The notes beneath the pieces are model-generated. The model had not been told where the DNA came from, searched no databases, and saw only the letters and a list, made by a program, of their open reading frames with translations. 64,000 nt of DNA from a virus: positions 141,151-205,150 of the IMG/VR virus record IMGVR_UViG_3300000976_000009; one strand, given 5' to 3'. Below are positions 2,560 to 47,232 of the stretch, piece after piece. Positions within the stretch are counted from its first letter, which is position 1. Each line of letters starts with the position of its first letter. The position numbers and the translations under genes were made by a program.

Positions 2560-3378
2560 ATGGATAAGTTATTATTAAAAGAAATATTATCAATCCCTAG
2601 TTATTCACGTAGGGAAGACCGTGTTAGGGATTATATTATTAAATTTGCTCAAAAAAAGAAAATACCTCACATTGTTGATGAATTTGGTAACGTATTTTTA
2701 AAAAAAGGAAATATAGATGAAGGTCAAGGGTATCCTTGTGTTGTGGCACATATGGATACAGTCCATAGGTCACAGTCAGAAATGGTAGATAGTGAACTTA
2801 ACTTAGATATTATTGAGAAGGAAACAAATGAAGGCACAATTCTGTATGCCCAAATGCCTAGACCTTCTGGTGTACCACTTAGTACTGGTATAGGTGGTGA
2901 TGATAAAGCTGGACTATTCATTTGTTTAAGTCTTATTGATAAACTAGATGTAATAATGGGTGCCTTTTTTGTTGAAGAAGAGATTGGATGTAATGGTTCT
3001 AGAAAAGCAAAACGTGGTATTGGTAATGGGTATTTAGAAGAAGCAGCATATTTTATCCAATTTGATGCCCCAACTAATAACTGGACTTCTAGGGTTTGTG
3101 GTGGTGTTGAATTATTCAACGATGAGTTTGCAATGGTTTTAAAACCAATTTGGGATAAATACGAATTGTCCACACCAAATATTAATGACCCTTTTACTGA
3201 TGTTAAAGAATTAAGATTAAATTACCCAGTATGTTGTATAAATTATTTTGCTGGTTATATGGATATGCATTCACCAGTTGAATATGTGGTTATTGAATAC
3301 ATTGAAAAAGCAATAAATGTTGGAGCAAGTACGATTATTGAATTAGGTAAAGACATATATTTATATAAAAAAGATTAA
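2560..3378 (+). CDS. M20/M28-family Zn peptidase
   Basis: AHMDTV, GGDDKAG, EEEIG, C-terminal H motifs. Confidence 0.85.
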   Translation: MDKLLLKEILSIPSYSRREDRVRDYIIKFAQKKKIPHIVDEFGNVFLKKGNIDEGQGYPCVVAHMDTVHRSQSEMVDSELNLDIIEKETNEGTILYAQMPRPSGVPLSTGIGGDDKAGLFICLSLIDKLDVIMGAFFVEEEIGCNGSRKAKRGIGNGYLEEAAYFIQFDAPTNNWTSRVCGGVELFNDEFAMVLKPIWDKYELSTPNINDPFTDVKELRLNYPVCCINYFAGYMDMHSPVEYVVIEYIEKAINVGASTIIELGKDIYLYKKD

Positions 3379-3605
3379 TGAATTTATTTAAGAGATATAG
3401 CGTATCTGTTTTAGATGGAAAATGGGAAACTATTTTTCCATTAATTAAAGTTAAATACATGCCCCGTTCTGGGGAATTAATTTATCTATCTGATAAAAAT
3501 TATTATAGGGTTATTAATGTGGTTCATAATATCAATAAAAAACATGGTATCTTTTTAATTGTTGAATTATTAGGTAAAAATCCAGAAGAGTTAAGTAAAC
3601 AATAG
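3378..3605 (+). CDS. hypothetical protein
   Basis: coupled ORF. Confidence 0.6.
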   Translation: MNLFKRYSVSVLDGKWETIFPLIKVKYMPRSGELIYLSDKNYYRVINVVHNINKKHGIFLIVELLGKNPEELSKQ

Positions 3606-3635
3606 ATTTTTATAGATTTTCGGATATTTATTATC

Positions 3636-3932
3636 ATGAAAACAATTTTAAGTAAAATCGGTTTATTTTTCAAATGGTTAGTTATTACTAATTTTGGGAG
3701 ATTACTATTATCATTCATTTGGATATTTTTATGGATGGGAATTAACAGTCTTTTATTGGACAATTCAAATTATAGTGGTTGGGCAGTATGGGTTGCATTT
3801 GTAGGTGTAGCTTATTTAGTCGGATTTACATTAGTCGCAATAGTTTATGCGTGGATTTTAAACCCAATTAGGGACCGTAAAGCCATGAAAAAAGCTAAAG
3901 CTGAATATGAAGCTAAGGAGAAAAATAAGTGA
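3636..3932 (+). CDS. hypothetical membrane protein
   Basis: two TM segments. Confidence 0.65.
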   Translation: MKTILSKIGLFFKWLVITNFGRLLLSFIWIFLWMGINSLLLDNSNYSGWAVWVAFVGVAYLVGFTLVAIVYAWILNPIRDRKAMKKAKAEYEAKEKNK

Positions 3933-5710: not shown

Positions 5711-5833
5711 ATGTGTAAGTAATACTTGGGTGGGTGTACAACCACTATTAACAAGAGGATTAGACCGTATACAGGTTGGAGGTTCGAACCCTTCCTTATG
5801 CTCGATAATAACAACTTCCTAAAACCAAAAACG

Positions 5834-6503
5834 ATGGAAACTATTTATTTAGAAATCAAAGATGCCCAAGGTGGTAAAGAATCGAAGTTATTGGTGGGAG
5901 ATATGAGAGATATCTACATCAAAACAGCGAAGAATAATAACTTCAAATGAACTGCAATTACAGATAGAGACGGATTTGTCTGTCTATGTCTTTAGCGGTG
6001 TTGGTGTAAAGAAAGTATTCAAGAACGAAGTAGGAACCCATACGTGGCAACGAGTATCTCCAACTGAAAAAAGAGGGAGAACCCATACTTCATCAATCAC
6101 GGTAGCAGTATTAGATAAACCAAAATACAATGAAGTCGAAATCAGACCCGATGAAGTTCGTATAGAAAGGACTATTGGTACTGGGAAAGGTGGTCAAAAC
6201 AAAAACAGGAGAAGTACTTGTATTGTTATGACACACTATGCAACAGGAATAAAGGTTGTACGTGATGGTAGAAAACAACACAAGAATTTAGAGGATGCTT
6301 ACAAGGAAATGAAGAAGCGAGTAAATGATTACCATAAGAATGGTCACATTGAAAATGAATCATCCCAACGTAAGCAACAAGTTAGTGTTACTGATAAGAG
6401 AAGAACCTATAAAGTTAAGACTGGTTTAGTTGAAGACCATATAACAGGTAAGTCAACTAAGATTAAGAATATCCTTAGAGGTAAAATCGAATTACTACAA
6501 TAA
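5834..6503 (+). CDS. class I release factor-like protein lacking domain 1; needs recoding (TGA 5948-5950; CTT TAG C at 5990-5996)
   Basis: LEIKDAQGGKES, E.GTH..QRVSPTE.RGRTHTSS, GKGGQNKN, RRTY motifs split over two frames. Confidence 0.85.
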
Positions 6504-9893: not shown

Positions 9894-9944
9894 AAAAAAC
9901 ACTAAATTGTTTGGACAATTGAAATATCTTTACTATATTTGTAA

Positions 9945-10072
9945 TGTGTTTGAGAGAGGTACAAATCACTAGGATGCCAAATTCCTGTCGCTAGTGGTCG
10001 TCTTCTTATGAAGCTCATAGGTCCGCAAGACCTATTAACCCCAGAGTAAAGGATTGTGACGGGTTAAACACA
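9945..10072 (+). ncRNA. unassigned structured RNA
   Basis: TGTGTTTGA/TTAAACACA closing stem, internal hairpins, follows TATATTTG promoter. Confidence 0.5.
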
Positions 10073-10076
10073 AACT

Positions 10077-10157
10077 GGGAATAGAATGAATTGTACACGG
10101 CTAGTACGAGTCAGCCTCTAAAACTGATAATATGTGGTTCGAGTCCACCTATTCTCA
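10077..10157 (+). tRNA. putative amber suppressor tRNA (CTA), atypical 8/4 fold
   Basis: TCAGC CTCTAAA ACTGA anticodon arm; GGGAATAG/CTATTCTC; GTGG TTCGAGT CCAC. Confidence 0.7.
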
Positions 10158-10183
10158 CTAATTAAAAACAAAAAACAAAAGTT

Positions 10184-10540
10184 ATGAACACTTAGATTAG
10201 TACAACAGAAAAATTAAGAGTAGTTTCAAGAAGAGACTTACACATTGGCGTTCAAGCCACACAAGCTGGTCATGCAGCAATTCAATTTCAACATGAACAT
10301 TCAGATAAAGCCTCAGCGTGGTATAATATTTCAAACCACTTAGGATTCTTAGCTGCAAAAGACGAGCAAGAATTAAAAGAGCTCATTCAAAGAGCCGAGA
10401 AAAGAGGACTTAATATTTCAATTTTTAGAGAACCAGACTTAGATAACGTTATTACGGCAGTAGCTATTGAAGCTTCGGACGATGGTAGACGTATTACTAG
10501 TCAGTATCCATTATTAGGGAAGGGGGTGGTCTCATGCTAA
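10184..10540 (+). CDS. Pth2-type peptidyl-tRNA hydrolase with in-frame TAG at codon 4
   Basis: ATG AAC ACT TAG then RRDL..G..ATQAGHAA..FREPDLDNVITAVA..YPLL; absent from ORF track. Confidence 0.8.
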
Positions 10541-10797
10541 TAATGGATGATACAAAGAAAAGGGAAATTATCTTTCACTTTAACAAGAAACATTTAGAAG
10601 ACCCAACGATTCCAATGTGGGTGATTAAACACAAGGGTGTGAGCCACTATGTTAATCACATAGACGTGGACTCTGGAGTCGGTTTCACAACCAAAGAGAC
10701 TCCAGATAACCCACGAACAAAGGGTAGTTTAAAATTTAAAGGAAAATTGAAGATTAGTGTTGACAATGGTGATATCCTAGCGTATATTTATTCATAA
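10534..10797 (+). CDS. hypothetical protein
   Basis: coupled ORF. Confidence 0.6.
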   Translation: MLIMDDTKKREIIFHFNKKHLEDPTIPMWVIKHKGVSHYVNHIDVDSGVGFTTKETPDNPRTKGSLKFKGKLKISVDNGDILAYIYS

Positions 10798-10808
10798 ACA
10801 GAAATATT

Positions 10809-11033
10809 ATGGAAAATGAGAAAACGTTAGGTGAGAGCCGAGTAAAGATTGATTTCAATACAACAAATGATTCGTTGGTTGACCAAATTAAAAGAAAGTC
10901 AGCAGAACTGATTGACCTTTGTGAAGAAATTAGAGCTAATGGTTCAAGTGAAAAACAAAGGGTATTATCTTTAGCACAAACTGGGTATGAGGATGCTTGC
11001 ATGTGGGCTGTTAAAGGAAACTTCACTGATTAA
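10809..11033 (+). CDS. small helical protein, Acb2/Tad1-like hairpin possible
   Basis: R.LSLAQT.YEDACMWAVK pattern. Confidence 0.5.
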   Translation: MENEKTLGESRVKIDFNTTNDSLVDQIKRKSAELIDLCEEIRANGSSEKQRVLSLAQTGYEDACMWAVKGNFTD

Positions 11034-11045
11034 TCAGTGAGGAAT

Positions 11046-11117
11046 GGTCGGGTGCTCCGAGTGGCTAGGGACAACTCCGCAAGAGTTGATAGGGATGTTC
11101 GAATCGTCCCCCGACCT
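11046..11117 (+). tRNA. tRNA-Cys (GCA)
   Basis: cloverleaf, U73, loop CCGCAAG (C33). Confidence 0.75.
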
Positions 11118-11280
11118 CAAAAAAACATGTGATTAATATTTATTTTAAATAATCTTATATTATAATAGAAGTATTAAGATGGTATTTCATCTTAAAGTTC
11201 TTTTTTTTAAAGCTCCTACCAAAGTAGGAGCTTTTTTTGGTTTAAATTTGGATATTTATTATTAAATTGTTATATTTGCA

Positions 11281-17619: not shown

Positions 17620-18252
17620 ATGGAATTAAAAATTGACCAAATTGCTAAGGGGACTAGAATTATATCTGGTGAGCAAGCTAAAGAAAGGCGTATCTTATTA
17701 AACCAAATTATTGAATTGGTTGAGTTAGAAGGCTATAATGAAATTATTCTACCTTGTGTGGAAAAATCTGAGGTATACACAGATAAAGCTGGTCAAGAAA
17801 TCCTTGGTCAAATGTATACATTCCCAGACAAGGGTGGCAGAAGTCTATGCTTAAGACCAGAAGGTACCGCAACTGTTCAACTATTAGCTGATAAATACTA
17901 TCCTACACAGAAGGATGTTAAGTTGTGGTATTTTGAAAGGTGTTGGAGATATGAGAAACCACAAGCTGGTAGATACAGAGAATTCTTTCAATTCGGATGT
18001 GAATGGGTTAACCCAAGAGACCCAGAAAAAGCAAAACAAGAACAAATAGAACTATCTAAGAAATTAATTGGGTTGAAGACTACGGAATTTGAATTAAATG
18101 ATTCAGCTAAGCGTGGTCTTTCTTATTATGATGGGGATGGTTTTGAAATTTCAGTACCCACTCTTGGTGCTCAAAAACAAGTTATGGGTGGTGGTAAATA
18201 TAAACAAGGTATTGGTTTTGCAATTGGTTTTGATAGATTAATGCTTTGTTAA
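17620..18252 (+). CDS. hisS: histidyl-tRNA synthetase, catalytic core only
   Basis: LRPEGTA, RYEKPQAGRYREFFQFG, RGLSYY, GGG.Y, GFAIGFDRL. Confidence 0.85.
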   Translation: MELKIDQIAKGTRIISGEQAKERRILLNQIIELVELEGYNEIILPCVEKSEVYTDKAGQEILGQMYTFPDKGGRSLCLRPEGTATVQLLADKYYPTQKDVKLWYFERCWRYEKPQAGRYREFFQFGCEWVNPRDPEKAKQEQIELSKKLIGLKTTEFELNDSAKRGLSYYDGDGFEISVPTLGAQKQVMGGGKYKQGIGFAIGFDRLMLC

Positions 18253-47090: not shown

Positions 47091-47161
47091 TGAATGTTCG
47101 TCTAGCGGTTAGGATACTGCCCATTACGGGTGGAGACACGGGTTCGAATCCCGTACATTTA
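47091..47161 (+). tRNA. Glu/Asp-body tRNA with aberrant loop CATTACG
   Basis: TCGTCTAGCGGTTAGGA D arm, perfect T arm, no U33. Confidence 0.55.
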
Positions 47162-47232
47162 ACAAACGCCCGTTGAGATATTACGAATCGATAGGGAGAA
47201 TGAGTATGACTGTTAGGAAAGACTAACAATAT

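Follow-up and report, generated by a model that had tools for sequence, protein, structure and literature searches.

What does an in-frame amber codon do at the fourth position of a phage gene, directly after a gene for a tRNA that could read it? This arrangement lies in a 64,000-nt stretch of viral DNA (positions 141,151 to 205,150 of IMG/VR record IMGVR_UViG_3300000976_000009; called the window below). The stretch comes from a jumbo phage; the record, which is complete, has 353,143 bp, terminal repeats, a GC content of 31.7 %, 60 tRNA calls and a tmRNA. Three elements make up the core of the locus.

10077..10157, + strand: tRNA-like gene with a CUA (amber-reading) anticodon, a long atypical D region and no encoded CCA (from the fold, relaxed ARAGORN and Rfam).
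10184..10195, + strand: start and putative gate, ATG AAC ACT TAG, a three-codon mini-frame if termination occurs (from the sequence and the conserved layout).
10184..10540, + strand: putatively amber-gated protein of predicted Pth2 fold, 118 aa on readthrough (from Pfam PF01981, a structure model and Foldseek).

The sequence agrees with the first-pass annotation of the window, which had described ATG AAC ACT TAG 26 nt after the tRNA and then 114 sense codons without an ATG: the distance from the tRNA discriminator to ATG 10184 is 26 nt, the TAG occupies 10193-10195, and the Met-free codons end at TAA 10538-10540. The minimum free energy fold of the tRNA likewise reproduced the annotated 8-bp acceptor, 6-bp D stem and 4-bp T stem around the CTA anticodon, with a z-score of only -1.96; an alternative 7/5 numbering with one mismatch suits the tRNA equally well. 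Its anticodon loop, CTCTAAA (10116-10122, with CTA at 10118-10120), has seven nucleotides including U33 and A37, as in a cloverleaf tRNA, and the same loop is common to 95 of 117 parsed CUA tRNAs.

The layout was compared across 185 loci (15 + 80 viral, 80 metagenomic, 9 from GenBank, and the window), of which 171 allowed an anchor and 144 are distinct; each set of 80 comprises the best loci, out of 113 and of 384 confirmed ones respectively, and close relatives are over-represented among them. A stop codon was found 2-13 codons before the first strand (KLxV), with no ATG between, in 133 of the 144 distinct loci. This stop is TAG in 132 (the gated loci below), TGA in one and TAA in none, so that the early TAG, whose conservation had been named as a check, precedes the first strand in 132/144 distinct homologues. 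A sense codon at the stop site, which had been named as a result that would speak against the gate, occurs in a minority of homologues only and fails as a general refutation. The other 11 distinct rows include XacN1 and RAS14, where ATG AAG TAG stands at the start of a fused gene, and locus L010, where a TAG is followed by an ATG; among 14 unanchored rows inspected by eye, eight have the TAG, three lack it and three are cut off. An in-frame ATG lies at most five codons upstream of the TAG in 126/132 gated loci, compared with none in the other two frames, and A is found at -3 in 94 of 127.

The gene bodies contain no TAG in 15,005 codons, against 815 Gln codons, and conserved neighbouring genes have a single TAG in about 36,000 aligned codons (80 loci). 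Since TAG is confined to one place, and the bodies and neighbours are almost free of it, the comparison identifies it as a single positional stop in genomes of standard code. The gated proteins are diverse (median identity 55 %, minimum 24 %; 45 clusters at 70 % identity among 130 rows). A purine follows the TAG at position +4 in 132/132, whatever the amino acid; in E. coli a purine at +4 is a suppression-friendly context, and the conserved purine fits such a context. The family is large, with 1,362 representatives at E 1e-10. On cellular genome contigs only four loci of the family were found, all four with the TAG; the contigs are probably of phage origin and binned with cellular DNA. No order of events is read from the protein tree, a quick one with 71 of 138 forks open.

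The second line of evidence is linkage to a CUA tRNA. Default ARAGORN calls one in 110 of the 132 gated loci, while the next commonest anticodon occurs in 35, and thus the synteny that the first-pass annotation had proposed as a check is borne out. The CUA tRNA lies within 300 nt upstream in 62/121 gated loci; about five further ones are visible by pattern, and many of the misses are short contigs. Of 16 cultured phages examined, 14 have the gate, with 0-2 codons between a start codon and the TAG: Bxz1, Myrna, Phabba, ScoobyDoobyDoo, XacN1, Xoo-sp13, RAS14, GAP32, fHe-Yen9-04, BF, Arash, ME3, RsoM2USA and pT24. Their hosts are Mycobacterium, Xanthomonas, Stenotrophomonas, Cronobacter, Yersinia, Serratia, Salmonella, Acinetobacter, Ralstonia and Tenacibaculum, and all 14 phages encode a CUA tRNA. 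Conversely, no CUA tRNA was detected in the four ungated genomes that were checked whole: RaK2, where the TAG is left, the upstream ATG is lost and an ATG lies downstream; Hallingskeid, which has no TAG; G002, which is complete with 41 tRNA calls; and G001, which is 78 % complete with 48 calls (some may be counted twice where stretches overlap). Lak-B8, also ungated, does encode a CUA tRNA; its presence is expected, since the Lak phages are recoded (bioRxiv 10.1101/2021.08.26.457843). The genome of the window phage has no clear early-TAG gene besides the Pth2-fold gene, and it yielded no convincing fusion across a mid-gene TAG. Two same-frame open reading frames (ORFs) split by a TAG at 3378-3932, a candidate second amber target, had no relatives in our searches.

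Taken together, we consider it very probable that the gene is gated by readthrough of the conserved UAG by a CUA tRNA. Initiation at ATG 10184 would bring the UAG into the A site after three codons; there, either release factor 1 (RF1) would terminate, or the charged CUA tRNA would decode the codon and allow the full-length Pth2-fold protein to be made. Weak termination would then raise the output. What varies as input would be tRNA function relative to RF1 supply, because the tRNA and the gene often stand under one predicted promoter, and the product would be a factor that recycles or binds blocked peptidyl-tRNA. The first-pass annotation had suggested just such a competition between suppressor and RF1 over a hydrolase gene, and the conserved in-frame TAG, the upstream ATG, the linkage and co-loss with the tRNA, and the parallel stop-gating of a nearby release-factor-like gene (below) back the gate itself.

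Several observations weigh against this reading, besides the over-representation of close relatives. The window tRNA has a D region of 27 nt, compared with 18-20 nt in 104/117 parsed relatives; default ARAGORN missed it and found it only at a relaxed score, and its Rfam tRNA score is 22.2 bits, under the cut-off of 29, while the CUA tRNAs of the relatives are canonical. By sequence, the window phage's own CUA tRNA is atypical for its class, and its decoding role is putative. Ungated loci L008, L012 (with CAG at about the stop position), L014 and L015 retain a nearby CUA tRNA, which goes against a strict rule, and the co-loss rests on four genomes, a small number, one of them 78 % complete. The codons after the TAG would also fit some initiation there. 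ATT follows the TAG in 94 of 132 gated loci, and the middle base is U in 123; where Ile follows, it is encoded by ATT in 94/96 cases, compared with 50-60 % at other Ile sites. In mycobacteriophages the TAG is followed by GTG, and in Xoo-sp13 an ATG lies five codons on. An ATT start may act as a basal leak at most loci, the window locus included.

These last observations would also suit an account with no readthrough at all, the mini-frame being terminated and translation restarting at ATT 10196 (at GTG in mycobacteriophages), a weak and possibly IF3-sensitive start. ATT is indeed strongly favoured over ATA and ATC, and the start given in GenBank for Myrna, Phabba, ScoobyDoobyDoo and Bxz1 is the post-TAG GTG, with a purine-rich stretch 7 nt before it. 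However, 29 of the 132 loci have no table-11 start codon between the TAG and the first strand, and the codon after the TAG is AAT, AAC or ACC in GAP32, BF, Arash, XacN1 and RAS14. Restart also gives no reason for a stop that is invariably TAG and in frame and is linked to a CUA tRNA. Initiation at ATT was ruled out as the general route by the 29 loci, and we regard the restart account as improbable; of the bypass at ATT 10196 that had been named as a possible refutation, a possible leak is what stands, given the strong preference for ATT. Because ATT is used in 94/96 cases, the 3' context of the TAG appears from the sequences to be under selection as nucleotides. In the four mycobacteriophages, a TTGACA + TAnnnT box ends 6-7 nt before the first ATG or GTG, and for this reason a leaderless message is predicted that begins at this first start codon, ahead of the TAG.

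An explanation of a different kind is that the TAG has no regulatory meaning, the gene being a pseudogene, the letters a sequencing error, or the genome one in which TAG is read as Gln. Database gene callers do put Gln at the stop site in many homologues, and the phage encodes a GlnRS. At the family level this explanation is refuted, and for the window we hold it to be extremely unlikely. The position is conserved over 24-100 % identity, the bodies are free of TAG and the neighbours almost so. TAG terminates 20 of the 265 ORFs of at least 150 aa in the genome, and coding cover is 0.685 with the standard code, 0.706 with TAG as Gln and 0.703 with TGA as Trp as a control. As TAG ends these ORFs and reading it as Gln gains no more than the control does, the genome uses the standard code (code 11), and the first-pass statement that TAG is an ordinary stop elsewhere in the window was right. 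A genome of code 15 (TAG as Gln) would have TAG in many genes and a coding cover above the control, and neither was found. Public contigs covering the locus contain no variant letters; both runs are of one sample, possibly the source of the window DNA. A recoded genome, sequencing error and pseudogene were rejected on these grounds.

The TAG could also stand for a special residue that the protein needs, such as pyrrolysine. These tRNAs are labelled 'Pyl' by ARAGORN and in GenBank, and PMC5966550 follows this label. However, the label derives from the anticodon alone, the tRNA bodies are ordinary and varied, and the phage genome gave no match to PylS (TIGR02367). A hairpin after the TAG resembling a selenocysteine or pyrrolysine insertion sequence (SECIS or PYLIS) is unsupported (z -1.47 in the window; family mean z -0.7, with 13/132 below -2). 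Pyrrolysine decoding was ruled out by the tRNA bodies and the lack of PylS in this genome, and we give a special residue hardly any weight. The stop lies outside the fold, in a variable tail before the first strand, and the CUA tRNAs have diverse bodies though a shared loop; for both reasons the inserted residue probably does not matter. An attempt to assign the amino acid from tRNA identity elements failed, as the acceptor pairs and the discriminator vary among the 117 tRNAs (discriminator A in 74, G in 22, T in 19 and C in 2). The phage GlnRS, which scores above the TIGR00440 cut-off (L200:1462-3054, at about 211 kb of the genome), is a candidate charger of the CUA tRNA.

What, then, is the protein behind the gate? 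It passes the Pfam PTH2 cut-off (PF01981; 39.1 vs 23 bits), its structure is predicted with a pLDDT (predicted local distance difference test) of 94, and the top Foldseek matches of the model are Pth2 structures, the best being 3erj (TM score 0.76, E 3e-7). On the strength of the model, the gated product has the Pth2 fold. It shares with known Pth2 proteins (PF01981; 3erj, 2zv3, 1xty, 1q7s) the fold (TM 0.7-0.76), the conserved QxxHA helix and the final strand. It differs from them in the active site, and here the evidence goes against an ordinary hydrolase: the lysine of the GK motif, present together with the DAGxT motif in the 3/3 solved Pth2 compared, is found in 0 of the 144 phage homologues, and the DAGxT position reads EPDx(D/N/G), with Glu in place of Asp and D, N or G in place of Thr. 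The NCBIfam equivalog cut-offs for Pth2 were also missed (NF003314, 31.3 vs 126 bits; TIGR00283, 28.2 vs 82 bits). The GK lysine and the Asp and Thr of DAGxT are reportedly catalytic in Pth2; the eukaryotic PTRHD1 branch is likewise not known to have the GK lysine. Thus, from the sequences, of the "Pth2-like hydrolase" annotated at first the fold stands, and hydrolysis by a canonical Pth2 enzyme is putative. That the protein works like a peptidyl-tRNA handling factor is plausible from its sequence, and on balance we favour peptidyl-tRNA, or tRNA N-blocked in another way, as its target, handled by an altered active site.

The remodelling of the canonical site, against near-invariant R, Q, H, EPD and TA across the phage homologues, would also suit a negative feedback, in which the protein strips the amber tRNA of its amino acid or sequesters it, or clears the leftovers of suppression, so that suppression brakes itself and serves another end. 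The CUA tRNA stays beside the ungated copies in L008 and L012, and several phages have an HD-like domain in fusion with the Pth2-like one or next to it, which in four is itself interrupted by TAG. On the other hand, the protein is retained in the four genomes without a CUA tRNA, and the window phage genome has no second clear target of suppression. We think feedback of this kind rather unlikely.

To return to the gate, what it responds to is suggested by a second gene in the window.

5834..6503, + strand: short release-factor-like gene, a companion gate, with an in-frame TGA at 5948 and CTT TAG C at 5990-5996, the remainder lying in the +1 frame.

This gene encodes an SPT tripeptide and GGQ. 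Of 24 matched loci, 22 were distinct with a readable start, and by a count made by eye the gene is stop-gated in 22/22: sixteen have two in-frame TGA codons, four have CTT TAG C and two, like the window, have both. The parallel with a stop-gated release factor gene drawn by the first-pass annotation therefore extends to the relatives. Because this neighbour is also stop-gated, a termination sensor is favoured, and the amber gate could well sense how much RF1 is available, as a UAG counterpart to the neighbour's UGA/UAG gates, with the chances slightly on the negative side. The whole explanation, of a CUA-tRNA gate, an output responsive to termination and a factor for blocked peptidyl-tRNA, we would give an even chance. 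Very short frames shed peptidyl-tRNA (PMC2490762), and non-stop complexes can arise through nonsense suppression (PMC8012679). More tentatively, the one job of this private suppressor might be to turn RF1 shortage into the Pth2-fold factor, forming with the gated release factor a termination-surveillance circuit that extends across phages of Bacteroidota, Proteobacteria and Actinobacteria.

The same readthrough gate could instead be a fixed dampener or delay, keeping low a protein that is harmful in excess, or postponing its synthesis to a time when the phage tRNA is present, trimmed, CCA-tailed and charged. All the evidence for the gate is compatible with this, as is the predicted promoter often shared by tRNA and gene; a CCA-adding enzyme gene occurs in 42/143 loci, and archaeal Pth2 is said to cleave bacterial initiator fMet-tRNA as well. 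A weak start or a leaky TGA would, however, suffice without a dedicated tRNA, several relatives tolerate an ungated gene, and the neighbouring release-factor-like gene is gated in the manner of a termination sensor. We regard a dampener or delay as unlikely, if less so than feedback.

Several known systems resemble the proposed gate. The prfB gene (RF2) is autoregulated by a +1 frameshift at CUU UGA C. There, too, the protein is made only if a release factor fails at an early stop, and the neighbouring phage gene has a CTT TAG C version; in our case, in contrast, suppression would be in frame and by a dedicated tRNA, there would be no frameshift, and the product is not a release factor. In Streptomyces, the bldA tRNA gates genes containing TTA. 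As here, one tRNA licenses a chosen gene through one early codon, but bldA reads a rare sense codon and has no competing release factor. Synthetic suppressor-tRNA gates (PMC7969014) use the same principle of licensing by one tRNA, but are engineered circuits. Similar, too, are the suppressors of code-15 phages (bioRxiv 10.1101/2021.08.26.457843), where a phage CUA tRNA is likewise proposed to control expression through in-frame TAG in a host of standard code. In those phages many late and lysis genes are recoded over blocks of the genome, whereas here there is one conserved TAG in one translation-related gene, sometimes with an HD partner, in a code-11 genome.

The same tRNAs have been seen before without this target. 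For XacN1, reading through the 18 terminal amber codons did not identify targets of its CUA tRNAs (PMC5852040). These orphan suppressors belong to the class described here: ORF364 of XacN1 is homologous, and ATG AAG TAG precedes its annotated start, so the target would be an amber at codon 2-10, hidden by an annotated start after the TAG or by a missed gene. Phage PTH2 has been listed as a jumbo-phage ribosome-rescue gene (PMC7824862, PMC5966550), the accessible part of PMC7824862 having no mention of a stop codon, suppressor or readthrough for it, and the tRNA arrays of cluster C mycobacteriophages hold a PTH2-like gene and a 'pyrrolysine' tRNA (PMC5966550). An earlier description of an amber gate on a Pth2-fold gene was not found in the passages of open literature that were searched, and one may exist elsewhere.

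The gate would thus name a concrete target for phage amber tRNAs that had been left unexplained (XacN1) or taken for pyrrolysine tRNAs (cluster C mycobacteriophages), correct the start of a gene that is mis-annotated or missed in many cultured phages, and represent a natural translational switch of one tRNA and one gene in standard-code genomes. It also offers a selective reason for a suppressor tRNA that predates stop-codon recoding; if true, the surveillance circuit would explain the 'tRNA-Pyl' of these genomes and provide a foothold for whole-genome recoding of TAG. The gate can be tested directly in the cultured phage Bxz1 and with E. coli reporters.

Ahead of the tRNA, two further elements were noted.

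9910..9941, + strand: Bacteroidota-type promoter-like site (TTTG, 20 nt, TATATTTG), from the sequence.
9945..10073, + strand: structured RNA of no known kind, directly before the tRNA (from nhmmer and predicted pairs).

We take the TTTG / TATATTTG site to match the Bacteroidota promoter consensus, and its presence points to a Bacteroidota host for the window phage, as far as sequence can indicate one. In 76/116 gated loci the 400 nt before the TAG contain a TAnnTTTG box, as a raw count without shuffled comparison. The RNA of about 130 nt between the promoter and the CUA tRNA matched one other phage only (nhmmer E 1e-17 to L156:3752-3889); six of its 36 predicted pairs are changed on both sides between the two, and two loops are invariant. 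It had no match in Rfam, and a search with a 17-nt pattern gave five viral loci, of which only L201, from the same phage as L156, could be aligned. The CUA tRNA of that phage appears to have no D arm, and that of the window has a swollen D region. The upstream RNA may work together with these odd CUA tRNAs.

Downstream, the predicted transcript continues as follows.

10534..10797, + strand: ORF of 87 aa overlapping the stop of the gated gene (homologue in 50/143 loci, in 49 directly after the gene).
11046-11118: tRNA-Cys, in the same predicted transcript.
11209..11234, + strand: intrinsic-terminator-like hairpin at which the predicted transcript would end, downstream of an Acb2/Tad1-like ORF and tRNA-Cys.

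The 87-aa ORF had no family match; its overlap with the end of the gated gene suggests a possible coupling to readthrough. The ORF at 10809-11033 in the same predicted transcript has an Acb2/Tad1 hairpin domain (a family of anti-defence nucleotide sponges) and was not found in the other loci compared. The wider surroundings contain ClpP, the tmRNA, the release-factor-like gene, a CCA-adding-type enzyme and a HisRS-like gene, whose 210-aa protein (17620-18252) covers the N-terminal part of the family model only. Directly before the release-factor-like gene lies a tRNA-like remnant with a T arm (5722-5812) and no stable fold (z 0.22).

In other phages, the HD-like domain, a weak assignment (Pfam HD, E 0.035), forms one protein with the Pth2-like domain in XacN1, Xoo-sp13, RAS14 and pT24. 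Where the HD-like gene instead lies beside the Pth2-like gene, it has its own TAG at codon 4 in RsoM2USA and mid-gene in GAP32, fHe-Yen9-04 and BF (L190:2124-2684, L187, L188 and L195). Finally, a tRNA-like gene of the window at 47091-47163 was called with a TTA (ochre) anticodon in an atypical loop, and tRNA calls with a TTA anticodon are present in G001 and G002 as well.
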